DNA from: Oscillospiraceae bacterium
Lineage (GTDB): Bacteria > Bacillota > Clostridia > UMGS1883
DNA: 33,761 nt
Direction: 5' to 3'
Assembly: GCA_015069065.1 (NCBI GenBank)
Contig: SVJI01000003.1
Span: 1 to 33,761, forward strand
This document shows, piece by piece, positions 12,694-25,998 of this stretch (the stretch's first letter is position 1; every line of letters begins with the position of its first letter). The notes under the pieces are model-generated. The model saw only the letters and a program-made list of their open reading frames with translations. It was not told the origin of the DNA and searched no databases. The translations under genes were made by a program, and so were the position numbers.

Positions 12694-13107
12694 TTATTTT
12701 TCTATTGTAACTGTAGAAGTTTCCTTGTCCCAGTTAACTGTTGCACCGAGTCCCTTTTCAAGAACAACGTTATTTACCAGTGTTCTGTCTGTGGAAAGAA
12801 TGGGTGCATTGTCCAGAAGAACCTCTTCATCATTTAAAAACATCTTATTGTTTCCAATCTGGATTGTTGTCAGAACATCGCCGCAGCTTGTAAATATTGT
12901 CTGGGTTTCACCCTGCCAGTTTACAATCGCTCCAAGCTTTTCTGCAACAAAACGAAGCGGAATCATAACGGTTTCTCCGTCAAGAACAGGCTGGCGGTCA
13001 AATTCTACAGCCTCGCCGTTTACCAGGACCTTAATATCTGCTGCAAGTGATGCAGTTGCGGTGAAAATCATCACCATAGCAAGTAATAATGTTACTACCT
13101 TTTTCAT
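12694..13107 (-). CDS. Secreted copper-amine-oxidase N-terminal ('stalk') domain protein
   Basis: Signal peptide; IKVLVNG..VEFD..P, MIPLRFVAEKLGA.VNW and final VNWDKETSTVTI motifs. Confidence 0.88.
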   Translation of the reverse strand: MKKVVTLLLAMVMIFTATASLAADIKVLVNGEAVEFDRQPVLDGETVMIPLRFVAEKLGAIVNWQGETQTIFTSCGDVLTTIQIGNNKMFLNDEEVLLDNAPILSTDRTLVNNVVLEKGLGATVNWDKETSTVTIEK

Positions 13108-14957
13108 ATTCCATCTACCTCCGTAATTTTATCTTTCTCGGGCTTTGTTTGTTCGTTTTTGGGATTTTCCTGCGAAGTGTCGGTATCCATGCTGTCATTT
13201 TTTAAATTTTCAGAATCAGCCATGATAGCTGAAACATCTGCATCAATGCTGTAAAACTCGCGTCCGTTTTCACTGTTTACGTACCATACAACCTTTCCGT
13301 TAGAAACCACAGGCTTACAGCTTGAAGAAAGTCTGCCGCTGACAGAGTATGTTTTTCCGAGCTGATTTCCCTCGCTGTCTGCTATTGCATAGCACAATGT
13401 GTTACTGTCCTCGCTGTAATCGTTAAAGCGCTGCCATAATACCATGAATTTTGAATCGGGCAGCTTAACGAGGTAGGGAACACTGCCACTTGAGCCTACT
13501 CCTGTGTAACGTGCCAGACAGGTGTGGCGCTGCTCCCATGTGTTCTTGTCTGTCCAAAGGAGGTATATATCGCGGTTTTCGCGGTCTATGCCCTCAATAT
13601 TAACATTACTGTAGCCTGTTGCGAGGGCGTGGTCAATTGTGTTCATCGAAACCAGATAACCCTCAGGCGAAACCTCAAAACCGCCTATCATTGCGCCTGT
13701 GCAGTTGGCACCTGCAGGACCGCCTACATTAAATATGCTTTGAGTATAAAGTACCTTTCCGCTAAAGTCAAGCTCCTGCAAAAAAGCTCCGCGCAGCGGT
13801 GCGGCATCAGAGAAGTTAGCGGTTATGAGCCTGCCGTCGTCAATGCGTACAAATTCACGCAGAGCGTGACTTGTGTGGTTGTATTGGAATTTTGACAGGA
13901 TATTAACCGGTTTCCATGAGGTCTTGTCTATTATAACTGTCAGCTGTGTTTGCGGGCGGGAGCCGTTTTCATCAGCATACTGACTGCGTGATGTATGGAG
14001 TACAAGATACCTCTCATCCTCAAACATTTCTCCTCCCGATGCGTCAAACGGAACAGCGGTTTTGCAGTTGTTTATTGAAACCTCACTGATTTTTACAAAG
14101 CTTTTATCGTAAATTGCGATTTTTATAACCTCGCGCGAATTATCCTCCAGCAAATTTTCCTGTCCGAATGCAATGTAGTTATAATCCTTGCCGACATAAA
14201 GTCCGCCAAAGAGCGGAAGCTCCTTTTTAATTGCAAAGGAGGAAAGGTGATTAAAGGATGAATCGTAATTTTCTATGTTTATATGCTCGGAAACTTCTAC
14301 CGCAGTAAAGGAGCCGTCACTGTTTGGTATAAGATGTGACGTTGCCGCCTTTCCCCACCTGTCAAAGGTTTGGCTTTTTGTTATCACAGAATCATCTGCA
14401 TCCAGAACGTGGTAGGAATTAACCTTGCTGATTGACGGAACATAAACTCCATCACGGTAAACATTTACCGTGCGGGCAGCTTCATCCCATACATATGTTC
14501 CGCACTGCTTTGCCAGATCGTCGGAGTATATACAGGTAAAACCGCCTATATTAAAGCTTTCAAGCACGGCAGTGTTAAAAACTGTCTTTATATCTGTGTA
14601 CAAAACGTCCATTACAGGAGTTCCCACAGGGAGAGAGGACACACTGTTTTCAAAGTGGAAATAACCGCGCCCGCCTGTTTGATAAATATCGCTGCCGGCT
14701 ATTGTGAGCATACGGTTGGAATCGTCGTAGTTTACACCGAAGGATAGCCCCATGGCGTTAAGGTTTTCCACGACAATAGCTGTTCGTCCGTTTATGTTAA
14801 AGGACGGAACCTGTATGCCGTCAATATATGTTACAATATCGGTGCTGAGAACTTTCCCCACAACATCACCCACATTTGCGGAGAAAACCGCGTGGCTTGA
14901 CAGTGTTAAAATGGAGGCAAGCGCACTGCATAGTATTTTTTTTGTTTTATTATTCAT
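13104..14957 (-). CDS. Secreted/surface protein with two N-terminal stalk-like repeats
   Basis: Signal peptide after AAGGAGG RBS (ATG 14957); repeats VLSTDI..SFNINGRT..YDDSNR and VLYTDI..SFNIGGFT..WDEAAR; beta-rich C-terminal region. Confidence 0.75.
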   Translation of the reverse strand: MNNKTKKILCSALASILTLSSHAVFSANVGDVVGKVLSTDIVTYIDGIQVPSFNINGRTAIVVENLNAMGLSFGVNYDDSNRMLTIAGSDIYQTGGRGYFHFENSVSSLPVGTPVMDVLYTDIKTVFNTAVLESFNIGGFTCIYSDDLAKQCGTYVWDEAARTVNVYRDGVYVPSISKVNSYHVLDADDSVITKSQTFDRWGKAATSHLIPNSDGSFTAVEVSEHINIENYDSSFNHLSSFAIKKELPLFGGLYVGKDYNYIAFGQENLLEDNSREVIKIAIYDKSFVKISEVSINNCKTAVPFDASGGEMFEDERYLVLHTSRSQYADENGSRPQTQLTVIIDKTSWKPVNILSKFQYNHTSHALREFVRIDDGRLITANFSDAAPLRGAFLQELDFSGKVLYTQSIFNVGGPAGANCTGAMIGGFEVSPEGYLVSMNTIDHALATGYSNVNIEGIDRENRDIYLLWTDKNTWEQRHTCLARYTGVGSSGSVPYLVKLPDSKFMVLWQRFNDYSEDSNTLCYAIADSEGNQLGKTYSVSGRLSSSCKPVVSNGKVVWYVNSENGREFYSIDADVSAIMADSENLKNDSMDTDTSQENPKNEQTKPEKDKITEVDGI

Positions 14958-15012
14958 TTTATCCTCCTTTTTCGGGGACAGAATCTTTTCTACAGAACAA
15001 AAGTCCAGAAAT

Positions 15013-15041
15013 ATTGTAACATAACGTACGATATTATTCAA
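15013..15041 (-). promoter_or_regulatory. Sigma-A type promoter for the 14957 gene
   Basis: Minus strand TTGAAT-17 bp-TACAAT with extended -10 TG, just outside the transposon left end. Confidence 0.65.
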
Positions 15042-15084
15042 CAATTTTAAAGAAAATTTAAAAAGTTTAGGACACATCGCGTTC

Positions 15085-15092
15085 AACTCTTC
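15085..15092 (+). repeat. Left 8-bp target-site duplication AACTCTTC
   Basis: Identical to 25991-25998; each copy directly abuts a terminal inverted repeat. Confidence 0.9.
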
Positions 15093-15140
15093 CCCATAAC
15101 TCTTAATTTTTGTGGAATGGAAGAAAATGTTGAGATTACA
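15093..15140 (+). repeat. Left terminal inverted repeat
   Basis: CCCATAACTCTTAATTTTTGTGG...ATGTTGAGATTACA; ungapped 35/48 identity to the reverse complement of 25943-25990. Confidence 0.88.
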
Positions 15141-15212
15141 CACAAAAATTGATTTAAGGTGTTGCGAAAATCAGCAGAGTTCGTTGGTGTGCTGAAAATA
15201 TTTTTTGTCGGC

Positions 15213-15288
15213 TTTTTATATAGCCGATGTCAAGTCTTTTATAACAAAGACGAAAAGTTTTATAAAATTATCAAACTTTTTTATAAAA
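15213..15288. repeat. Left subterminal array of TTTTATA(AAA) motifs
   Basis: Four cores with TATA at 15217, 15240, 15261 and 15282 (spacing 23, 21, 21). Confidence 0.75.
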
Positions 15289-15320
15289 CGGCATCTGTCC
15301 ATCCAAATTTGTGTCTTCTA

Positions 15321-15373
15321 TTGAAATCATGCCCCTTTTACGCTATAATATAAGAAAAGTAGCGTAAAGGGGC
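15321..15373 (+). promoter_or_regulatory. Transposase promoter overlapped by an inverted repeat
   Basis: TTGAAA-17 bp-TATAAT (15321-15349); arms GCCCCTTTTACGCTA (15331-15345) and TAGCGTAAAGGGGC (15360-15373). Confidence 0.75.
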
Positions 15374-15401
15374 GTTTGTCATAAGTATAAAGAAAAAAGC
15401 A

Positions 15402-17033
15402 TTGGAATTACGGGCGAAACAACAACGGCAAGCCGAGCTTGATGAAATTGCCGAGAGGCTGACACCCGAAGAGATTGAAAGACTAATTTCGGTCTATGAG
15501 AAAAAGACGGGAAGAAAGGCACTAAATCCAGCACCACAGCCTGACAAATTTGTGCAGTTCTTGAAACGGCAGGATTTTCACATGCTCTGCCCGTTCTGTA
15601 AAGGCAGAAATTATTATTCGCACAGCAATCCTCTTAGTCGGGATATTAGATTTTATTGTAATGATTGTAAAAAGGCATTCTCACCTTTTATAGGGACATT
15701 GGTTCAAGGGTCAGGGCTCTCTTGGGATGCATGGGTTGAATTGGTGCGTTGTACTTTGGAAAATAAGTCACTTGTAGCAACCAAACATCTACTTGAAGCT
15801 GATTATGGTGTATCTATGAACCAACAAACAATACTATCATACCGCCACAAAATACAAAAGGCAATCACCCTGACATTCCCGATGCCAAAGCTTTCGGGAG
15901 TAGTACAGGTTGATGAAACTTACTTTCGGGAGGGGCAAAAAGGCTCAAGAAGCCTTGTAAATGTTGCACCCACCGCCATTGACAAGAGAGAGGCACGCCT
16001 GCATACAAAATCACATCCAGGGAAAATGGGTATCAATGGTTCAGAATATTCCTGCATTGTTACTGGATATGAGAGTTCATCGGGAGGTGGAGGTCATATA
16101 GCAGCCGTGATGACAGGCCTTGGCAAAAGTTCCTCACAGCCTTTTGAAGATTATTTTGCAGACTACCTTGGTGATGTTACCTTTTTATGTAGTGACGGGT
16201 TTGAGGCATATAGCAGATACGCCGACAAACACGCTATTCCGCATTATGTGCAGATGTCTGAGGCAAGGTCAATAATTAAGAAAGAAATGCAGGATTATAA
16301 AGAACGCTATAAAACCGCAACAACAGCCGAAGCAGTAAGGGAAAGGCTTTATGGAACAAGACAGCTTGACTATATAGACAATTATAGCAATCTGAATTAT
16401 AAGCAGTTTGTAGAATTAAAAGTGGCAAAAGGTTTAACCTTAGATAATATTGACAACTACCACGCCGAGTTGAAACTTCGTATTAATAAAGAATTAAGGG
16501 GTGTTTCAACTGTTTATCTGCCTTTATATATAGGTTTTAGGGTATTTATACATAATTGGCGGGTAGACCACAATGACACCCCACCATCTTCAAGGGCTGA
16601 TGCTGAACAAATTTTTACTGCTTTACTTATGGCAGGTGATAATTATGTAAGCCGCAAAGATTTTGAGGGACTGTCAATTCTTGATTTTAATAGACCTGCA
16701 ACTAAATATATAAATCACCTGAAAAAATCACTTGATGAAATCCGCAGACAATCGGGAATAAAAGGTTTTACCTTTGATGATAATGACAGATTACTGACCT
16801 TTAATAAAAGAAAATATTTTGAAGATACACCAATGGCAAGATTAAAAGAAATCAGTAAGCAGTATCATATAAAAGGATATACTAAAATGACGGCGTATCA
16901 ACTGGCACGGGAAATTTGCAAGTTGCCCGAAGTTAATGACATTTTCCTGCGGCTTGTGGCAGCGGACGCCGTCCACTCACACTATATAGATGATTTAGCG
17001 GAATTGCTAAAAAAAGAAGAACAGGGAATTTAA
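15402..17033 (+). CDS. IS1595-family transposase, atypically long, with C-terminal Rho_N/HeH-like module
   Basis: Zn ribbon CPFC..CNDC followed by KAFS..GT; LSGVVQVDETYF, FLCSDGFEAY and NIDNYHAELK..RGVSTVYLPLY motifs; C-terminal ARLKEISKQYHIKGYTKMT. TTG start with no clear RBS. Confidence 0.88.
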   Translation: MELRAKQQRQAELDEIAERLTPEEIERLISVYEKKTGRKALNPAPQPDKFVQFLKRQDFHMLCPFCKGRNYYSHSNPLSRDIRFYCNDCKKAFSPFIGTLVQGSGLSWDAWVELVRCTLENKSLVATKHLLEADYGVSMNQQTILSYRHKIQKAITLTFPMPKLSGVVQVDETYFREGQKGSRSLVNVAPTAIDKREARLHTKSHPGKMGINGSEYSCIVTGYESSSGGGGHIAAVMTGLGKSSSQPFEDYFADYLGDVTFLCSDGFEAYSRYADKHAIPHYVQMSEARSIIKKEMQDYKERYKTATTAEAVRERLYGTRQLDYIDNYSNLNYKQFVELKVAKGLTLDNIDNYHAELKLRINKELRGVSTVYLPLYIGFRVFIHNWRVDHNDTPPSSRADAEQIFTALLMAGDNYVSRKDFEGLSILDFNRPATKYINHLKKSLDEIRRQSGIKGFTFDDNDRLLTFNKRKYFEDTPMARLKEISKQYHIKGYTKMTAYQLAREICKLPEVNDIFLRLVAADAVHSHYIDDLAELLKKEEQGI

Positions 17034-17348
17034 AATTCGCTGAATGACGGCATTCCCCGAAAATTCAAAAAGTGTTTGTCTAAAAGTGTTTGAAAATCGG
17101 CGAATAATGACCGAACCGCCGTTTTTGATGTTTTTTTGCCTGCTTTTTCATAAAAATTTAAAGATATCAGAGGTTAGAATTCCAAAAAAGTTAAAAAGTG
17201 TTTGACAGTTTTTTCAGCGTGGTTTTTTCTTCAACCAATACAGATAGTGTTTCCGGCACCGGAAGATGTGCCGATATGCAAATAAGGTTATCTCTAAACA
17301 GAGGTAGCCTTTATTTTTTGTGCAAAAGTGAAAAAATCATAATTTTTA

Positions 17349-17377
17349 TTGTAATTACGGCAGCATTGTGGTATAAT
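17349..17377 (+). promoter_or_regulatory. Sigma-A type promoter for the cargo SLH gene leader
   Basis: TTGTAA-17 bp-TATAAT with extended -10 TG. Confidence 0.75.
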
Positions 17378-17383
17378 ATGTAA

Positions 17384-17589
17384 GCTACAACTTTTAATTT
17401 TTAAAACACAATTTAATATTTTACTTGCGTGAGGAGTACACTACTGTAAAAAGTGTACACTCTTGTTTCTCATACCCTTATGCAAGTAAGTTGTGTTATG
17501 AATTAAAAGTGTGTAGCAACCTTTTGAAACAGAGTCACTGCATTTTTTGGTGTGTGGCTCTTCTTTCGGGGGGAGCTACACATTTTTTT
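17384..17589 (+). ncRNA. Putative structured leader RNA/attenuator (or sRNA)
   Basis: Starts at the predicted +1; long imperfect hairpin 17384-17517; ends in an intrinsic terminator with competing pairings. No family recognised. Confidence 0.6.
17551..17589 (+). terminator. Intrinsic terminator within the SLH gene leader
   Basis: TGTGTGGCTCTTCT-TTCG-GGGGGAGCTACACA stem (with G-U pairs) followed by T7, 52 nt before ATG 17642. Confidence 0.75.
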
Positions 17590-17641
17590 AATTCTTGAAA
17601 AATTAAAGTGTAAATATTTTATATAAAGGAGTTCAAGAAAA

Positions 17642-20600
17642 ATGAAACGGAAACAAAGTAAAGTATTGTCAATTCTGCTTTCGATTGCTATGCTGTGCAG
17701 CATGGTTGTGCCTACTGCTTTTGCAGCTGATAGCAGATATATTGACACAACCGACCATTGGGCAGAAACAGCCATTGAGCGGTGGAGTGATTACGGGATT
17801 ATTGAGGGATACGGCGATGCCTTTAACCCCGACTACTCAATCACACGCGGGCAAATGGCAACTATTCTGTCAAAGACATTAGGGCTAACAGAAGAAGCAG
17901 AAAATCCATTTAGTGATATCTCTGCCGATGAATGGTATGCTCCCTATGTTCTGCGTTGCTATAAAGCAGGCATAATGCTTGGAGATAACGGCAAGGCTAA
18001 TCCCGATGCGGAAATTACCAGACAAGAGGCAATGACTATGTTTTGCCGTGCTTTTGGTATTAAAGCAGATGAATCAGCAGACTTGACCTCTTTCAAGGAC
18101 AGCAGAGAAATTGCTGATTGGGCTTTACCTTATGTTTCCGCTTTAATAGACGGCGGTATTGTAAGCGGTGTTTCAAGTGATATGATTGCACCTGCTGAAA
18201 GTATGAGCAGAGCGGCACTTGTAACCATACTTGACCGTGCTGTGGTACAGTATGTTAATACAAGCGGGGAATATGACCTGACAGACAGCAATGGCATTAT
18301 TCTTGTAACTGCTGGCGATACCATCTTAAAGGGTGAGACAAAGGCTGACATTCTTATCACACAGGCGGCTGACGGAAAAGCTGTAACCTTTAAGGATGCA
18401 GCTGTTACGGGCGAGGTTACAGTTCAGGCTGACACAAAAATTATAAGTAACAATTCCAAGCTTCCCCAAATTGATGCAACTGTTGAGGAGGTTAAAAAGG
18501 AAACCCCTAAAAAACCTAGCGGTGGAAGCTCTGGTGGTAGTTCCAGACCCACTATCTCTAACCTGACAATCAGCGAGGAAAAAGCCTTAACAAGCGGTAC
18601 ATACAACAATGTAACTATAACCGATGCAGTAGCAGATGGTGAAGTTACTTTGAGCAATGTAACAATAAATGGTGATTTAACAATCAAAGGCGGTGGCTCA
18701 AGTTCTATCAAACTTGATAATTGTACCATTCAGGGTAAGGTTATTATGGCAAAAGAAACGGGCGAGACTCCCCGTCTTGAATTGACAAATACACCTGTTG
18801 CAACTGTTGAGGTACAGAAACCCGCTATCATTGAGGCAGTAGATAATGCCTCTGCTGTTACAAAGATTGAGGCAACCGCGAACATTGAAATCAAGGGTGA
18901 AAACACAAAGATTGAAACACTTGCAGTTCCTGAAACTGCGGAAAGTGCCGTAGCTGTAATTGTAACGGCTGGTAATGTTGCAACTGTTGAGGCAAAGGCT
19001 GAAACAAGTGTAACAGGTGCAAGCAATTCAGTTAATACAATCGTAGCAATAGCAGCGGTAACTGCTGATTCTGAGACAGTTCAAAAGGTGGAAATCCCCG
19101 AAACTGCAACAGAGAGCGTAAGCGTAACTGTGACAGGCGATGCATCTGTTGATGTTGAAATCAACTCAACAAGTGGTGCGGCTGTTATGGGTACAAATGT
19201 AACTGTTTCAACTACTCTTGAAACCGCTCCCGATAATATAACAGTAGGCGGTGAGGCTGTAAGTCACATCCATAAGTGGGGTGAGCCTGTTACCACACCT
19301 GCAACCTGTGAGCAGGATGGCGAAAATGTATATACCTGTATTGCTGACGGATGCGATGATACTGCTAAAACAAAGACAGAAGTAATCCATTCATTAGGTC
19401 ATAAATATGGTGATTGGAAGAAATCGGATGATGATTTGCATGTCCGTGAGTGTGCTAATGATAAAGACCACTATGAAAAACAAGAGCATACTTGGGACGA
19501 GGGTAAAATAACAACAGAAGCAAACTGCGGCCAAGATGGTGTAAAGACCTATACCTGCTCTGTATGTAAAGGTACAAAGACAGAAACAATAGGTAAACCT
19601 GAACATAACTGGGGTGACTGGGTAAAGGTAGATGCTACAAGCCACAAGAGGGTATGTAAGAACAATGCAACTCATATCGAAACAGCGGACCATACACCGA
19701 TTATTGATAGTGCAGTAGATGCTACCTGTACCGAAACAGGAAAAACAGAAGGCTCACATTGCGATGTTTGTAAGAGCGTGATTGTTGAGCAAACCACAAC
19801 ACCCGCATTAAAACACGATTTCACAGGGGAATATGAGAAGGATGCTGATGGTCATTGGCATATCTGCGAGCGTGATAACTGCGAAGAAACCGACACAAAG
19901 GCAGGTCATACCTACAACACAACAAATTGTGCAGAGGTTGCAACCTGTACTGAATGTAAATATGAAAAGCCAGCGGGCGAGCATACTTGGAGTGATTGGG
20001 AAAAGGTAGATGATACCAACCACAAACACACCTGCTCCTGTACCGCAACAGAAACAGAAGAGCATAAATGGGATGACGGCGAAATCACAACCGAGCCGAC
20101 AGAAACAACAGAGGGTGTAAAAACCTATACTTGCTCTGAATGTAAAGGAACAAAGACCGAGGCTGTGCCTGTGATTGTTTCAGCAAATTATGCATTTGTT
20201 GAAAACCACGAAGGGAATCCATTAAGAATTTCTTGGAAAGAATCTGCTCTTGCTGCTGAAAATGGATACAAGCTGAAATTTGATGGATATAATACGACTA
20301 TGGGAACAGCACGCACTGTAGTTAATTTAGCACCTATTTTAGTGCTTGATAGTTTGCAAAACGGAAAGCTTTCTATGGCGGTTTATACAGGTCCTGATTG
20401 GGTAAATCTTACACCGATATATTCTTCAAAGGAAATAGGAAATATTACTATTAACAACAAAACACCTGAATTCGAAATTGAGAAGGATGAAAGCGGAAAT
20501 TACAACTTCGTTTCTGAATTGACAGGCGGAATGTGGGTTTACGAGCTTTATAATAATGACACCATCTATTATGCAAATAATGATGTTAATGGTGCTATCG

Positions 20601-23600
20601 ATTCGTATGCTAATTTTGCTGACGGACATACTGTAAAAGCACGTTATGTTACTTGGACACTTAACGATGATAAAACTTTTGCTGAATTTACGGTGTCTAA
20701 CATTGCAACCTATACCTACAAGGAATCTGTTGCAAGCGATGTAACAATCACATTAGTTCAGGAAGGCGACAGTATTAAGGCAACTTGGACGGGAACAGAC
20801 TTACCCAATTACTATTTCGAAATTGAAGATAGCAACGGAAAATATGTAACAAGCGGCTGGACAAATGGAGATGAATGTTGCATAGCAGACCTTTCGCTTT
20901 ATCTTCCCAGAGCGGATGAGGACAGTAATTACACTCTTGTAGTATATTCTGCGAACGAGAATTGGATTGTAGTTGAAGAAATAGCAAGGTTGTACAACTG
21001 CTTTGAAATTACTGTTTTAGGAAATGTCGTTGAATATAATATGGTATTTAATGATGGCGAAGACGGCGTGCATAGTGTTACGCTGGCAGGTGATACATTA
21101 CCCAGCGGTATTCGATTGCTTGATGCTTGGTATGATAGTTTAGGAAAGCTAAGAAGTTCTGGGTCTTCAAGCATAAGTAGAAATAAAACGGAACATCAGG
21201 CAATTCAAAATGGCTATGATTATGATTTAAGAGTTTTAACTGCCTATGCGCTTGATGGGCAGACTATAAAGGCAACAATGACTCCTCCTTCAAAGAAAAC
21301 ATATGTAAATGAAGATGAACCGAAAATTAAATGGAATGACGGCGGAACAATTGCATGGCAGGCAGTAGCAAATGCCGATGATTACAAGTTGAATATCTAT
21401 TCAGGAGATACTGTTGACAGCACCAAGCTTGTCGCAACCAAAAACATAGGTACTTATAGCACAGTATATCAAATTAGCAGTAATTTTGATATAGCAGAAC
21501 TGGCTGACAATAAAGATGCTACCTTTACTGTTGAACTCTTGGCACTTGATACAAATGATAATGTAATCGAAACTGTCGGGGTATTGGCAGAGGGTATAAA
21601 TTTAACCTTTACCGAATCCGCTCCCGAATTCAGCTTTGAAGTAACAGGCGAAAAGACCTACACCATAACCTTTGCCGAGGGAACACCCAACGGAATGCGA
21701 TACAGCCAATGGTATGATGCTGAAGGAAATAAGTCGGGTGGAATGTCAGGTTTTGGCATGACACAATTAACAAATGCTGGAGAAAGAGCCTATGCCTTTG
21801 CTGATGGAGATACAATCAAAGTTTATATTGCAACAGTAGATACTATCACAGATACTGTATGGACTATTACCAGAACACCTGATGCGGTACAGATATATAC
21901 CACAGAAGAAACAGATGCTTCTCTTATTTCATTCCGCAAATGGAATACAGACATAATGTTTGACGGATACGATGATGTTGCAGATACAAAGAGCCTTGAA
22001 GTAGACGGAATTAAGGTGTTGTCAAAGAAGACAGAAACAATGAGTGAGTTTCTCTTTGATTATGACCAGACAAAAGGAAATATTACAGATGCAGATTTCG
22101 TTGTAGAACTTGATGGCGTTGAAAAGGAAAGAATTAAGGGAAATGTTGATGTAACACTTTCAAATACAGATGTTGCATTTACAATAAATACAGACGGAAC
22201 ATTGTCTTTTGATGCAACCACACACGGCAGCTTTGCTTATGAGACAACAACAAAGGACGGAATGACTCATCAAGTAGGTAGAATAGCCTTTAATAATGGT
22301 ACATTGGTGGATGGTTGGACGCTTCCGACTCTTGCTGATGGTGAAACAATTGACATTATGCACATTGATTGTACCTATGACGAAACCACTAAATCAATTT
22401 CTGCAACTATATCAAAGCATACAACAAAAACCCATACCGCAACAAGTGATAAAAACATTTGGTTTAGTGAAGATGGCGACGGAATATATGTAGAGTGGAA
22501 AGAAACAGAGCTTGCAGATGGTGAAAAGTATTTTATCACAATGCGGAACCCCGAAAGCCTGTTTACCCGAACAAAAGCAAAGTTGGATTTAGGTACTTTT
22601 TTTGATGAAAGTGATATTGTAAACGGCAAACTTGCAATAAAGGTTGATACAGGAACAAGCTGGAGCGATGTTGAAAATCTTTATGATGAAAAGGAATTTG
22701 CCAATGTTACTTTAACCAATACTACCCCCGACTTCACTATTGAAAAAGATAGTACAGGAAAATATAAGTTTGTATCCGACCTATCAGGTGGAGCTTGGGT
22801 TTATACCACATATGACGAAAATAGCAACCTTATGTATGTAGGAAATGTGGTTAATGGAGCAATAGATACTTATGCTAATTTTGCTGACGGACATACTGTA
22901 AAAGCACGCTATATAACTTGGACACTTAACGATGATAAAACTTTTGCTGAATTTACGGTGTCTAACCTTGCAACATACACCTACAATGAGCCTGTCGCAA
23001 GCGATACAAATGCCCATCTTATGATGGACGGTGATTATCTTTATCTTGTGTTTGAGGATGAAGAGGGACTCGGAGCAAATGAGTGGTATTATGTTCTTCA
23101 AAACGGGGAGAATATCACAAGCGAAGACCTTAAGGAAATAGAACTCACATGGCTTTTGCCGGGAATTAGCGAAAATACGGTCTTAAATTACGAAATTCAA
23201 AAAGGAACATGGCAGACAAAGGAAACTTTTGTAAAGCTTGACAATGCAATCAATATTACTGTAACTGATTCTGCACCTAATCTGTCACTTGTTCCACAAG
23301 CAGATGGTACATACAAAATAACAGGCGGCGGGGACACAGGATATTTTTACCGTGTGACAACACCCGAGGGCGACCGCCTTGCAACAGATTATACACTTGA
23401 CGATACATTCCTTTGTTCAATATACGAAGGATGCACAGTAGAACTCCAGACCGGAACAATAACAGTTGCCGAGGATGGACTTTCTGCAAATATCACAATG
23501 AGTCCGGTTGTTAAAATAGAAAATCCCACACTCCCGACAGGACTTAACACTGTGGTTGAAGTTGATACGGCAGACAAGCTTCTTGATGCGGTAAACAGAG

Positions 23601-24553
23601 GTGCGATTGCAACGCTTACCGCAGATATCACAAGCGAAAATGTGTTTAAGTTCAAAACCGGCGCACCTGCAACAATTGACCTTAACGGGCATACACTTAC
23701 TGCACCTACTGTGAGAGCATATTACGGTAAAGAGCTTACAATTGATGCAACCAAGGCCGGCAGTGCTATTAACGCAACTCTTACGACCAATCTCAAGGGA
23801 AGCTTTATTTTAACCGGCGGAACATATGAGCGTATCAGACTCAGTGGAGGTAAAAAGTTTATAGCAAACGGAATTACGGTACAAAGCTCCGGGGCATATG
23901 AACCTGTAGAAATAGGCGCTATGGATTATGTTGAAATAAACAACTCAAGTTGCATAAGCACATCAACCGCCGAACTAACAAGTGGTCTATACATATGGGA
24001 ATGTAACGAAGTAAAGCTTACTAATGTTACTGCAAGTGCAATAAGTAATTGGTTTGGTGCAGACATTGCATGGTGCGAAAAGGTGAATATCACCGGCGGA
24101 AGTTTCAGCGCAGAGAACAACGATGGACTTCGTTTTGTGGAATGCGAAAGTGCAACTATTGATGGTGCAAGCGTAAGCGGTAGCACAACTGCGCTTCTTG
24201 TTCAGGATGGAGCGGTTGCAGAGATTAATGGTGGAACATTTACATCAGCAGGGAACTCAGCAATTCAGCTTTCAAGAGAAGATTCTGCGCTTACGATAAA
24301 CAACGGAACATTCATTGCAAATGGTGATGGCTCTATAAAGAATATTGTAATAATGGAAGATACAAATACTTTCATTATTAATGGTGGAACATTTGAAGGA
24401 TTTTCCGGTGTTACATACTCTGATACTGCTACTGTAAGTATAAACGGTGGCACATTCAGCTTTGACCCCACAGAATATGTGGATACTGCTACTCATACTG
24501 TAACTGATAACGGAGACGGAACATTCGTAGTAACGGCAATCAAAACTGAGTAA
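17642..24553 (+). CDS. Large S-layer homology (SLH) domain surface protein, 2303 aa
   Basis: Signal peptide (AFA/AD); three SLH repeats (HWAE..ITRGQ, EWYA..ITRQE, DWAL..MSRAA); Cys/His-rich repeats; Ig/FN3-like modules; C-terminal I(N/T)GG(T/S)F beta-helix-like repeats; AAGGAG RBS. Confidence 0.92.
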   Translation: MKRKQSKVLSILLSIAMLCSMVVPTAFAADSRYIDTTDHWAETAIERWSDYGIIEGYGDAFNPDYSITRGQMATILSKTLGLTEEAENPFSDISADEWYAPYVLRCYKAGIMLGDNGKANPDAEITRQEAMTMFCRAFGIKADESADLTSFKDSREIADWALPYVSALIDGGIVSGVSSDMIAPAESMSRAALVTILDRAVVQYVNTSGEYDLTDSNGIILVTAGDTILKGETKADILITQAADGKAVTFKDAAVTGEVTVQADTKIISNNSKLPQIDATVEEVKKETPKKPSGGSSGGSSRPTISNLTISEEKALTSGTYNNVTITDAVADGEVTLSNVTINGDLTIKGGGSSSIKLDNCTIQGKVIMAKETGETPRLELTNTPVATVEVQKPAIIEAVDNASAVTKIEATANIEIKGENTKIETLAVPETAESAVAVIVTAGNVATVEAKAETSVTGASNSVNTIVAIAAVTADSETVQKVEIPETATESVSVTVTGDASVDVEINSTSGAAVMGTNVTVSTTLETAPDNITVGGEAVSHIHKWGEPVTTPATCEQDGENVYTCIADGCDDTAKTKTEVIHSLGHKYGDWKKSDDDLHVRECANDKDHYEKQEHTWDEGKITTEANCGQDGVKTYTCSVCKGTKTETIGKPEHNWGDWVKVDATSHKRVCKNNATHIETADHTPIIDSAVDATCTETGKTEGSHCDVCKSVIVEQTTTPALKHDFTGEYEKDADGHWHICERDNCEETDTKAGHTYNTTNCAEVATCTECKYEKPAGEHTWSDWEKVDDTNHKHTCSCTATETEEHKWDDGEITTEPTETTEGVKTYTCSECKGTKTEAVPVIVSANYAFVENHEGNPLRISWKESALAAENGYKLKFDGYNTTMGTARTVVNLAPILVLDSLQNGKLSMAVYTGPDWVNLTPIYSSKEIGNITINNKTPEFEIEKDESGNYNFVSELTGGMWVYELYNNDTIYYANNDVNGAIDSYANFADGHTVKARYVTWTLNDDKTFAEFTVSNIATYTYKESVASDVTITLVQEGDSIKATWTGTDLPNYYFEIEDSNGKYVTSGWTNGDECCIADLSLYLPRADEDSNYTLVVYSANENWIVVEEIARLYNCFEITVLGNVVEYNMVFNDGEDGVHSVTLAGDTLPSGIRLLDAWYDSLGKLRSSGSSSISRNKTEHQAIQNGYDYDLRVLTAYALDGQTIKATMTPPSKKTYVNEDEPKIKWNDGGTIAWQAVANADDYKLNIYSGDTVDSTKLVATKNIGTYSTVYQISSNFDIAELADNKDATFTVELLALDTNDNVIETVGVLAEGINLTFTESAPEFSFEVTGEKTYTITFAEGTPNGMRYSQWYDAEGNKSGGMSGFGMTQLTNAGERAYAFADGDTIKVYIATVDTITDTVWTITRTPDAVQIYTTEETDASLISFRKWNTDIMFDGYDDVADTKSLEVDGIKVLSKKTETMSEFLFDYDQTKGNITDADFVVELDGVEKERIKGNVDVTLSNTDVAFTINTDGTLSFDATTHGSFAYETTTKDGMTHQVGRIAFNNGTLVDGWTLPTLADGETIDIMHIDCTYDETTKSISATISKHTTKTHTATSDKNIWFSEDGDGIYVEWKETELADGEKYFITMRNPESLFTRTKAKLDLGTFFDESDIVNGKLAIKVDTGTSWSDVENLYDEKEFANVTLTNTTPDFTIEKDSTGKYKFVSDLSGGAWVYTTYDENSNLMYVGNVVNGAIDTYANFADGHTVKARYITWTLNDDKTFAEFTVSNLATYTYNEPVASDTNAHLMMDGDYLYLVFEDEEGLGANEWYYVLQNGENITSEDLKEIELTWLLPGISENTVLNYEIQKGTWQTKETFVKLDNAINITVTDSAPNLSLVPQADGTYKITGGGDTGYFYRVTTPEGDRLATDYTLDDTFLCSIYEGCTVELQTGTITVAEDGLSANITMSPVVKIENPTLPTGLNTVVEVDTADKLLDAVNRGAIATLTADITSENVFKFKTGAPATIDLNGHTLTAPTVRAYYGKELTIDATKAGSAINATLTTNLKGSFILTGGTYERIRLSGGKKFIANGITVQSSGAYEPVEIGAMDYVEINNSSCISTSTAELTSGLYIWECNEVKLTNVTASAISNWFGADIAWCEKVNITGGSFSAENNDGLRFVECESATIDGASVSGSTTALLVQDGAVAEINGGTFTSAGNSAIQLSREDSALTINNGTFIANGDGSIKNIVIMEDTNTFIINGGTFEGFSGVTYSDTATVSINGGTFSFDPTEYVDTATHTVTDNGDGTFVVTAIKTE
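20606..20709 (+). repeat. Intragenic direct repeat, copy 1
   Basis: 100/104 nt identical to 22871-22974; offset 2265 nt (755 codons). Confidence 0.9.
22871..22974 (+). repeat. Intragenic direct repeat, copy 2
   Basis: Encodes YANFADGHTVKARY.TWTLNDDKTFAEFTVSN.AT, as does copy 1. Confidence 0.9.
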
Positions 24554-24567
24554 AATTAGATGATTTT

Positions 24568-24610
24568 GGCGGCACCCTTGCGAAATGCAAGCGGTGCCGC
24601 TGTTTTTTTT
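24568..24610 (+). terminator. Intrinsic terminator after the SLH gene
   Basis: GCGGCACC-CTTGC-GAAAT-GCAAG-C-GGTGCCGC followed by TGTTTTTTTT. Confidence 0.9.
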
Positions 24611-24801
24611 GTTCCGATAAGAAATGAGTGAAAATTTTTAAATTTAAAAAGGAGAACTGGACATATACAGGCTTGGGGTGGTCAACAAAATATATTTTTA
24701 TACAGAAGCAAAAAATCAAGAAAACAGTTTTTGCTGTGATTTCAAGGTTTTATGTTTCACTCACCAACAGGTGAAATTTAATATAGAAGGAGGGTTGGAA
24801 A

Positions 24802-25230
24802 ATGAAAAAAGATTATGTAATTAAAAATGAAGCTACTAATGATTTTTCTGCTATGGGTACTCTTAATGTTAAAGTGGGTCCAAGATTTGGTAGGGTTTTA
24901 AGAGATTTAATAGAGGAAAATTTAATTGCTGGCGCTACTGTTGATATGGCTAATGAAAATCAGATGGCAATTCATTTTATTGCAGGTGACCCTATGGCTA
25001 CCAGTGATGAAAATGATAATGGTTTTGTTAATGGTTTTTCTGGTGATAATGGTTTTTTAGTTAAAGTAGGCTCACGCATAGGTAGAGTTTTAGTAAAGCT
25101 TGGTGAAGATTTTCTTTTAACAAGTGCAAGTTTGTCTATGATAAATGAGACAACAGTTTCAGTTAATCTTAATATCGGGGATATTGGTATTGAGTTAATA
25201 GAAACAGATAATGTGGAAGGAGATGATTGA
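24802..25230 (+). CDS. Small acidic hypothetical protein with an internal two-fold repeat
   Basis: AAGGAGG RBS; VKVGPRFGRVL..L.E..L..A...M.NE recurs as VKVGSRIGRVL..L.E..L..A...M.NE. Confidence 0.75.
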   Translation: MKKDYVIKNEATNDFSAMGTLNVKVGPRFGRVLRDLIEENLIAGATVDMANENQMAIHFIAGDPMATSDENDNGFVNGFSGDNGFLVKVGSRIGRVLVKLGEDFLLTSASLSMINETTVSVNLNIGDIGIELIETDNVEGDD

Positions 25231-25616
25231 GTATGAGTCAATCAAATGCTTTTACAGGTGTGCCTTATGTGTATGCAAATAGAAGGGGTTATCCCGACAT
25301 TGCATACACAAAGGCAATGTATCTAAACATAGAGGTTCCAAGAGAGAACTATTATGTTGATAATGCTGGTGAAGACAAACAGCTAATGTATTTATTTCAA
25401 GAGTTAAATGATGGTGATGTTGTTATTATTGGTACAATAACAGACCTTATGATACCTGAAATTAGTGATATGTTAAACCATTTAGAGCATTTTGATGAAT
25501 TAGGAGTGCAGGTTATATCAGCTTTACAACCAGACTATAACATAGAAGATTACAGAGAGATAGTAAGGTTAGCTGATATAATCAGCAGGGTAAGATTAGG
25601 GCAAAAGCCTGTATAA
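25227..25616 (+). CDS. Degenerate serine-recombinase (resolvase) N-terminal-like domain protein
   Basis: YVY..., ENYYVD, LFQELNDGDVVII, DMLNHLEHFDELGVQVIS follow the resolvase catalytic-domain pattern, but RxS and DRLxR are missing. Start TTG 25227 or ATG 25233; coupled to the upstream gene. Confidence 0.6.
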   Translation: MSMSQSNAFTGVPYVYANRRGYPDIAYTKAMYLNIEVPRENYYVDNAGEDKQLMYLFQELNDGDVVIIGTITDLMIPEISDMLNHLEHFDELGVQVISALQPDYNIEDYREIVRLADIISRVRLGQKPV

Positions 25617-25625
25617 GTTAAATTT

Positions 25626-25671
25626 AAAGTAGCAGTTGTGTAGGTAGGAGCGCACAACTGCTACTTTTTTT
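25626..25671 (+). terminator. Intrinsic terminator closing the cargo region
   Basis: Perfect 15-bp arms AAAGTAGCAGTTGTG / CACAACTGCTACTTT plus T-run. Confidence 0.9.
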
Positions 25672-25763
25672 GATAATTTTTTACGATGCCGGAAATCAGC
25701 ATCGCATTTGTACGGAATTCGTGCATCGGGGGTATAAAGCTCCCGATATTTTTTGTCTTAATA

Positions 25764-25903
25764 TTTTATAAAAAATCCGCTGCTTTTTATAAATAAAGCG
25801 AAATATTTTATAAAAGCTTATAGTCATTTTTATAAAATCATATGAAAAGTTTTATAAAAAGGCAAAAAAACTTAACCACACCATAACAACAAACTTTATA
25901 AAA
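25764..25903. repeat. Right subterminal array of TTTTATAAAA motifs
   Basis: Six cores with TATA at 25767, 25788, 25809, 25831, 25853 and 25897 (spacing 21, 21, 22, 22, 44). Confidence 0.8.
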
Positions 25904-25942
25904 TTATGAGCATTTTAAAGCGGTAGAAACAGCGTTTTTTGT

Positions 25943-25990
25943 TGTAATCTCAACATAAAAATTTTTCCCACAGAAAAAAAGAGTTATAGG
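25943..25990 (-). repeat. Right terminal inverted repeat
   Basis: Reverse complement reads CCTATAACTCTTTTTTTCTGTGG...ATGTTGAGATTACA, matching the left end. Confidence 0.88.
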
Positions 25991-25998
25991 AACTCTTC
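25991..25998 (+). repeat. Right 8-bp target-site duplication AACTCTTC
   Basis: Identical to 15085-15092. Confidence 0.9.

Follow-up and report, generated by a model that had tools for sequence, protein, structure and literature searches.

We have analysed a stretch of DNA of 33,761 nucleotides (the window, i.e., positions 1-33,761 of the forward strand of contig SVJI01000003.1, assembly GCA_015069065.1, Oscillospiraceae bacterium), in which a transposon of 10,898 bp occupies positions 15093-25990. It is bounded by imperfect 56-bp terminal inverted repeats, which are 71% identical, and by an 8-bp target duplication (AACTCTTC). Between the repeats lie a transposase gene, a very large gene for a cell-surface protein, two small open reading frames (ORFs) and, inside both ends, rows of the 10-base palindrome TTTTATAAAA (Table 1). 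These rows, which we call arrays, are the subject of this work; their single units are called cores and were accepted with at most one mismatch to the palindrome.

The transposon and its core arrays

The right array consists of six cores starting at 25764, 25785, 25806, 25828, 25850 and 25894, that is, at spacings of 21, 21, 22, 22 and 44 bp, which reproduces exactly what an earlier note on this DNA had read from the letters. The best-fitting period is 21.7 bp, with a resultant of 0.99. For the left end the same note had counted four cores spaced by 23, 21 and 21 bp. Three of them are good, at 15237 (one mismatch), 15258 and 15279, each 21 bp from the next, while the fourth, at 15214, is a degenerate copy (TTTTATATAG, two mismatches) within a hairpin.

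Exact copies of TTTTATAAAA number six in the window, all within the two arrays, where 0.27 would be expected, and none of 100 shuffles reaches this count. The arrays also withstand the comparison with shuffled AT-rich sequence that had been suggested for them: when the AT-rich regions alone were shuffled with their dinucleotides preserved (20000 times each), the six hits of the right array were equalled in none of the shuffles and the three hits of the left array in seven. We have further searched the whole 1.39-Mb assembly, using the reversed motif as the control. The phased pair pattern occurs three times, always inside the element, against 0 for the control. Of the exact 10-mer itself the assembly has 24 copies, of which the element holds six; the control has 32, so the 10-mer is not enriched elsewhere in the genome.

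The two array regions resemble each other beyond their cores. As had been noticed before, they share in direct orientation the strings GAAAAGTTTTATAAAA (15252 and 25844) and ATATTTTTTGTC (15198 and 25746), and the right array is overall co-linear with the interior of the left end in direct orientation, with no mirror image. The small TCGG..CCGA hairpins described beside the arrays do fold, both at 15208-15227 (free energy dG -5.4, z -4.5) and at 25725-25747 (z -3.1), and the right one, taken together with its T-run, receives a terminator-like score. The left stem shows a compensatory change from C:G to T:A in one relative (L015), and the right stem is kept in genome G112 (locus L108), where ATCGG/CCGAT has become ATAGG/CCTAT. 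Compensatory changes in both small hairpins point to selection on the structure or on a palindromic site. Scanning the whole window against Rfam at gathering thresholds gave 0 matches, so the arrays are overlapped by no described RNA family.

The element is a bona fide transposon that has moved. Among the contigs of metagenome run X3, a single one joins 15084 to 25991 and thus represents the empty site, with eight letters fitting both sides and a shorter side of only 22 letters. Another carries a left end of ~89% identity that begins exactly at 15093 in a different flanking context. The back-joint 25990-15093 was not seen among the X3 contigs, which cannot show rare forms. The terminal repeats, the duplication, the empty site and the transposase matches given below together bear out the former description of the element as a transposon of IS1595 type, a family for which ISfinder gives a target duplication of 8 bp.

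The enzyme encoded by the element is a DDE transposase of IS1595 type that has diverged and is extended at its C-terminus. It matches NCBIfam NF033547 with an E-value of 6.9e-19 and 68.6 bits (curated cut-off 75), the plasmid sequences that tblastn matches best to it carry the annotation of IS1595 family transposases (at 21-27% identity, with E-values as low as 1e-12), its distant homologs carry PF12762, and its top Foldseek matches are transposases and integrases of the DDE fold. Pfam gave nothing below an E-value of 0.01 on the transposase, Zn_ribbon_IS1595 appearing weakly at 0.035; the four cysteines of the zinc ribbon (C63, C66, C86 and C89) are invariant across 28 sequences. Since canonical IS1595 transposases match only residues ~60-430, about 60 N-terminal and about 150 C-terminal residues are extensions specific to this clade.

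We have paid particular attention to the C-terminal extension. Its last 109 residues are predicted to form a confident fold (predicted local distance difference test score, pLDDT, 87). Weak, sub-threshold profile matches point to Rho_N (6 of 15 members, best E 7e-4) and SAP_new25 (2 of 15). The structure search ranks the SAP domain of FAN1 (Z 5.0) before that of PIAS1 (3.9), the N-terminus of Rho (3.9) and other SAP domains (3.2-3.8), all within the noise range of the tool. No usable match to residues 430-543 came from a protein atlas search, and a homodimer model of the domain scored 0.01, which speaks neither for nor against a dimer.

Table 1 Features of the transposon, with positions in the window
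Feature	Position	Strand	Basis
Left copy of the target duplication, AACTCTTC	15085..15092	.	sequence, empty-site contig
Left terminal inverted repeat; tip CCCATAACTC, inner TGTGGAA and GTTGAGATTACA blocks; tip also in relatives	15093..15148	+	repeat comparison
ATATTTTTTGTC block, then TCGGCT..AGCCGA hairpin whose loop holds the degenerate core TTTTATATAG (15214-15223)	15198..15227	+	sequence, folding
Left array, cores at 15237 (TTTTATAACA), 15258 and 15279; starts 144, 165 and 186 bp from the tip	15237..15288	.	motif search
Transposase promoter TTGAAA-17-TATAAT (11 of 12), 32 bp past the last core	15321..15349	+	promoter motif
Transposase, 543 amino acids (aa): N-terminal helices, CxxC..CxxC zinc ribbon, helix-turn-helix (HTH), DDE/RNase H core, ~150-aa C-terminal extension with SAP/HeH-like motif	15402..17033	+	profile, structure, alignment
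Passenger, 2303-aa SLH-domain cell-surface protein (SLH, E 6.3e-29)	17642..24553	+	domain search
Passenger ORF, 142 aa, without family; 81% conserved in G112	24802..25230	+	domain search, comparison
ORF of 129 aa, remnant resembling a serine-resolvase catalytic domain, without HTH; directly before the right array	25227..25616	+	hhalign
Strong terminator-like hairpin with T-run after the 129-aa ORF; dG -15.1, z -7.8	25626..25671	+	folding
Second terminator-like hairpin, ATCGGGGG..CTCCCGAT, tail ATATTTTTTGTC	25725..25757	+	folding, terminator scoring
Right array, cores at 25785 and 25894 with one mismatch; starts 217, 196, 175, 153, 131 and 87 bp from the right tip	25764..25903	.	motif search
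Right terminal inverted repeat	25935..25990	-	repeat comparison
Right copy of the target duplication, AACTCTTC	25991..25998	.	sequence, empty-site contig

The SLH protein contains long internal repeats (e.g., 20570-20740 and 22835-23005 are 88% identical), and a second family member with an SLH surface protein as cargo, a BspA-LRR/SLH protein of 785 aa, was found at L010 12614-14971. Cargo varies among the elements and includes SLH proteins, an FAD oxidoreductase, an AMP-binding enzyme, a small membrane protein and others; the transposase is the sole gene seen in all elements examined. A 679-aa ORF on the minus strand (13104-15143), with no match in Pfam or NCBIfam, starts with GTG at 15143. 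As this listed start falls in the left terminal repeat, the true start of this flanking gene must be further downstream, outside the element.

Arrays in related elements

We have surveyed the family in 87 genomes of the order, in a scan of the collection and, with an exact triple pattern of cores, in 401 genomes of the class. Six of the 87 genomes, the own genome included, contain homologs of the transposase, and the collection scan yielded 62 loci, while scanning the metagenome contigs with the transposase returned one weak locus (L096). The closest relatives have transposases of 83-95% identity. Where the transposase is at least 41% identical, a phased array stands upstream of its gene at 27 of 29 loci; the two exceptions, L024 and L031, both miss the upstream sequence. 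The conservation beside homologous transposases that had been asked about is therefore found: at 41-60% identity the arrays are present, their cores and spacing are kept, and the spacers have diverged. The motif itself stays identical across transposases of 31-100% identity and across several Clostridia families. The pooled spacings (n = 253) are 21 bp in 142 cases and 22 bp in 35, and the remainder are mostly 33, 42-46 or 66 bp. The left array of relatives holds up to 15 cores; it begins 130 bp inside the tip and ends just short of the -35 box of the transposase promoter, which is close to consensus.

Selection on the cores becomes apparent when they are compared with the DNA between them. 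Across 215 distinct units, information is confined to the 10-bp palindrome, with 85-99% agreement per position, and the spacers are flat; as the units were chosen by the motif itself, only the flatness of the spacers is informative here. Against G112, the right end of the window is identical at 58 of 60 core positions, 41 of 80 spacer positions and 231 of 304 flanking positions. Since cores and spacing are kept while the spacers diverge, chance and recent tandem duplication are excluded as the source of the pattern.

This bears on the idea that the arrays are functionless, minisatellite-like tandem duplications of AT-rich DNA evolving neutrally. Their copy number does vary between relatives, from 3 to 15 cores; an exact 21-bp triplication exists in G370; and one variant X3 contig has a right end without 192 bp (25557-25748, both hairpin regions) and without 106 bp (25816-25921, about five units), so array length varies even within one metagenome. 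On the other hand, unrelated spacers between preserved cores are the opposite of what recent duplication leaves behind, and the arrays persist over transposase identities of 41-100%, often at the same distance from the tip. Neutral repetition is hence hardly credible.

We have also weighed an explanation by DNA shape without any protein, in which phased T4-AT-A4 units would give curvature, easy wrapping or melting and thereby shield the transposase promoter from outside transcription or favour synapsis. The strict periodicity of about two helical turns suits it, as does a motif made of A-tracts around flexible TA steps. Conservation at all ten positions (85-99%, and 58/60 against G112) exceeds what shape should need, however, and arrangements with the T-tract before the A-tract are known to be little curved. 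We consider it improbable that shape by itself accounts for the arrays.

Sixteen complete elements of 2.9-10.9 kb could be bounded, most of them with visible 8-bp duplications; such duplications were recorded for the window, L017, L025, L030, L034, L036, L041, L043, L038, L097 and L013. Clear arrays at both ends occur in only two of the sixteen, the window and L038 (the right array of L037 is degenerate), and the closest complete relatives, L016 and L017 with 57-60% identity, have no right array. A quick tree of the transposases shows a fully supported clade in which all 22 rows have an array and 20 of them have it at the left end only, the state with both ends arising twice within it. A distant clade of six loci (~31% identity) has the array at the right end only and is placed, with weak support, among lineages without arrays. 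The other distant lineages are array-less, and no other phased 8-mer was found at their ends by a search for exact 8-mers, which degenerate arrays could escape. Two Streptococcus genomes carry, ~4 kb downstream of distant transposase homologs, a perfect 10-bp tandem repeat with a AGACAAGACA-like unit in 5 to 10 copies (L061 15613-15662, L063 15435-15537), which is unrelated to the arrays.

The earlier note had taken the arrays for platforms that help to pair the two ends. Its first half is retained, since arrays conserved in cores and spacing beside transposases of only 41-60% identity are most naturally read as phased platforms for protein binding. The second half is not: with clear arrays at both ends in 2 of 16 elements, the family does not as a rule have a symmetric platform for pairing the ends.

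The distance from the tip is partly conserved. In two subclades that differ in their terminal repeats, the cores of the left end start 130, 151 and 172 bp from the tip; at the right end, the window, G112 and L038 have cores starting at 131, 152/153 and 173-175 bp. Other registers are 123/144/165 in the clade of the left end of the window and 148/169 in the right-only clade. Between the last core and the -35 box lie 18, 18, 32, 5, 25 and 28 bp; a fixed phase between array and promoter is thus rejected, as gaps from 5 to 32 bp share none. The arrays reach as far as about -450 relative to the promoter and occur also at right ends without a promoter.

Certain derivatives have lost the transposase gene. 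L097 1351-2815 (G194) is a derivative of 1465 bp with both terminal repeats and an 8-bp duplication (CCTTAAGA), which retains the left repeat with four cores, the promoter and a 177-aa ORF of zinc-ribbon/membrane-like character. L099 (G096) is another left end without the gene.

Candidate proteins for the cores

A resolvase-like gene accompanies the right array in several places. Homologs of the 129-aa ORF directly precede the right arrays in G112 (L108 2204-2584), L038 (13078-13686) and L037 (5746-5982). The L037 member matches Pfam Resolvase with an E-value of 0.007, and comparison of the 129-aa ORF with two true resolvases by hhalign gives probabilities of 86% (E 4.7e-6) and 92.6% (E 4.6e-7). 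The ORF looks like a decayed resolvase that travels as a module with the right array.

The exact triple pattern was found in 10 of the 401 class genomes, at 11 loci, and 0 times for the control. Eight of these loci are ends of the transposon family, one is the triplication in G370, and the remaining two, in G026 (L109 5711-8026) and G347 (L110 6365-9763), consist of a serine resolvase, an array of 5-6 TTTTATAAAA cores at 21-22 bp and a tyrosine integrase, in this order; G347 has an additional 137-aa ORF between resolvase and integrase. The two genomes are unrelated, and their resolvases are only 26% identical. The arrangement may represent a separate type of mobile element that uses the TTTTATAAAA array. 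Profile searches found no family transposase in G026, G347, G194, G096 or G112, which are drafts of 92-98% completeness; an empty answer from this search is uninformative. Among viral contigs the exact triple pattern occurs at 8 loci, several of them in giant-virus bins.

It could therefore be asked whether the array is a site of the resolvase, i.e., an accessory, res-like or operator site that the transposon acquired along with a resolvase gene, of which the 129-aa ORF would be the decayed remainder. In its favour, the array is immediately preceded by a resolvase gene or a resolvase-like ORF in the window, G112, L038, L037, G026 and G347. However, the 45%-identity clade of the tree contains 13 left-only elements, every one with a long left array immediately inside the left repeat, and tblastn with the 129-aa ORF finds no resolvase-like gene at their loci; moreover, the remnant in the window has no HTH and corresponds to a portion of the catalytic domain only. 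The layout differs as well. A res site is typically built from three dyads at unequal spacing, located upstream of an active resolvase gene, while the arrays here are made of 6 to 15 palindromes at 21 bp with free spacers. In the family as a whole the cores are uniform at 21-22 bp in 3 to 15 copies, and the adjoining ORF is a partial remnant. We see a slim chance for this explanation.

What we propose instead is that the TTTTATAAAA rows are cis-acting, helically phased accessory sites to which the element's own transposase binds cooperatively, probably through its C-terminal domain. We put this forward tentatively, as plausible rather than probable. The arrays, their phasing and conservation, their place in the element and its past movement are observed; that a protein sits on the cores, which one it is and what it achieves there we infer. 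In favour of the proposal count the selection on cores and spacing, the occurrence of arrays throughout the family, the transposase as the sole gene common to the elements examined, the partly conserved distance from the tip, the confinement of phased pairs to the element, the cores kept in a derivative without transposase gene, the extra C-terminal domain and the precedent of IS1535. Each 10-bp palindrome would take one protein dimer. Spacings of 21-22 bp, together with those of 33, 42-46 and 66 bp, would align the dimers along a single face of the helix, where a cooperative filament or a wrapped complex may form at a fixed distance inside the tip. The most likely binder would be the transposase itself, acting through the clade-specific C-terminal extension with its SAP/HeH-like motif, while the zinc-ribbon/HTH part would read the terminal repeats. 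The end loaded in this way would help to assemble or to control the transposition complex. An array at one end could suffice, as in the filament capture of a naked end in the IS607 family, and where the array abuts the transposase promoter it might also set the expression of the transposase.

One observation on the protein could connect it with the cores: nine residues are common to both array-bearing clades and rare in array-less ones, and three of them, at 494-508, lie in the SAP/HeH-like motif. With two or three independent contrasts, this correlation is a hint only, and the SAP-like assignment is below every threshold. Several further observations likewise weigh against binding by the transposase. 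Because the cores do not resemble the terminal repeats, the enzyme would need two DNA specificities. A helical register common to all tips and arrays was considered and is rejected, since 130/131 occurs in many ends and 123/144 and 148 elsewhere. One motif serves transposases that are only ~31% identical, and the right-only clade is nested among array-less lineages; given this constancy and this placement, a conserved host binder fits at least as well. The arrays of G026 and G347 stand in resolvase-integrase elements in which, in draft assemblies, the family transposase was not detected. Finally, the TTGACT..TATAAA promoter of an ordinary host gene (L082 1501-1590, G050 contig 42) is preceded, at a distance of 25 bp, by two exact cores spaced by 22 bp, and the sequence just behind the second of them is similar to that found behind the last core at transposase promoters.

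The chief alternative is accordingly a conserved host protein, either an architectural nucleoid protein or part of the transcription machinery, which binds the cores, has been recruited by several kinds of mobile element, and bends or wraps the DNA or tunes the promoter of the recombinase. Motif and spacing recur in three settings (the IS1595-like ends, the two resolvase-array-integrase modules and the two-core copy at the host promoter), the motif is the same in several Clostridia families whatever the divergence of the transposase (31-100% identity), and a promoter follows the array in most contexts. IHF is recruited in this way by many mobile elements in proteobacteria, and TTTTnnAAAA is the centre of the consensus UP element, an AT-rich region at about -38 to -59 of a promoter that is bound by the alpha C-terminal domains of RNA polymerase. 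Against it, the 10-mer is not enriched elsewhere in the genome (24 against 32 in the control), and phased pairs are confined to the element. Most triple-pattern loci (8 of 11, in 10 of 401 genomes) are ends of this very family. Right-end arrays have no gene downstream inside the element, the distances to the -35 box share no phase although those to the tip are partly conserved, and arrays up to 450 bp upstream extend well beyond the reach of one polymerase. We regard a host binder as somewhat unlikely, yet only a little less likely than the transposase and a strong competitor to it: it explains the arrays in resolvase-integrase elements and the constancy of the motif, and suits less well the partly conserved register with the tips and the lack of enrichment in the genome.

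Transposase binding can also be stated in a stronger form, in which an IS1595-type DDE transposase polymerises through a dedicated C-terminal SAP-like domain on a phased row of up to 15 palindromes at one end, shuts the adjacent promoter and captures the naked end, the array module having been exchanged with resolvase-integrase elements. That all of these steps hold together would be unlikely.

Significance and comparison with known systems

Overall, the arrays constitute a regular natural design, i.e., a 10-bp palindrome on a two-turn lattice, in 3 to 15 copies, often beginning 130 bp from the tip, with left, right and both-end variants; being regular and naturally varied, it is directly testable. 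The elements are active in gut Clostridia, as target duplications in many genomes and the empty site in the metagenome attest, and since their cargo is large and includes SLH surface proteins, the control of the element bears on the movement of surface-protein and metabolic genes among gut bacteria. Subterminal accessory sites are central to complex assembly and regulation in Mu, Tn7, hAT and IS607 elements, and the mechanism of IS1595-type elements has been little studied. The arrays in resolvase-integrase elements are, in addition, a hint of an architectural mechanism shared across types of mobile element.

Compared with canonical IS1595 elements, the family has the same zinc-ribbon and DDE transposase, inverted repeats, 8-bp duplication and, in some members, passenger genes, and the clade of the window adds N- and C-terminal extensions of the enzyme and 0.2-0.5 kb of arrayed DNA. 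Among the papers listed by literature searches on IS1595 subterminal sequences and on the motif, we found none that describes arrays of this kind. The spacing also recalls iterons and the repeats of partition sites, which are tandem sites about 20-22 bp apart, bound cooperatively on one face of the DNA. The elements here differ in having no replication or partition gene, in conserving only 10 of 21 bp, and in the location of the sites inside transposon ends.

The earlier note had been reminded of the ends of Mu and Tn7. These do contain several accessory sites inside asymmetric ends, which is a true likeness, and a separate domain of the Mu transposase reads an enhancer overlapping the regulatory region. 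In Mu and Tn7, however, both ends have subterminal sites, and these are further copies of the sequence recognised at the terminus, whereas the cores here are absent from the terminal repeats and usually stand at one end, with clear arrays at both in 2 of 16 elements. A eukaryotic counterpart is offered by hAT (Hermes, Ac) and piggyBac elements, in which the transposase uses one DNA-binding domain for the tips and another, accessory one for many short subterminal repeats that lie as far as hundreds of bp inward; their repeats vary in spacing and orientation, and those of our family form a strictly phased palindrome.

The closest parallel is IS1535 of the IS607 family. According to PMC6188088, four helically phased motifs on one end of IS1535 nucleate a transposase filament that captures the other end, multiple transposase dimers binding cooperatively; the Mu enhancer and Hermes are mentioned in the same text. 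Both systems place phased short motifs inside the end, and the one-ended filament described there (PMC6188088) fits the one-ended arrays of our family. IS607 uses a serine transposase and four 9-bp direct repeats at a spacing of 10-11 bp, within 20-60 bp of the tip, without inverted repeats or target duplication. The family of the window has a DDE enzyme and a 10-bp palindrome at 21-22 bp, in 3 to 15 copies starting from 87-148 bp, together with 56-bp inverted repeats and an 8-bp duplication. Thus, of the features that mark an IS607-type end, phased motifs near one end are found here (21.7 bp, 0.99), and a serine enzyme without repeats or duplication is not. If the stronger form of our proposal were true, it would extend to a DDE transposase the one-ended, filament-driven synapsis that has so far been described only for the serine transposases of IS607 type.

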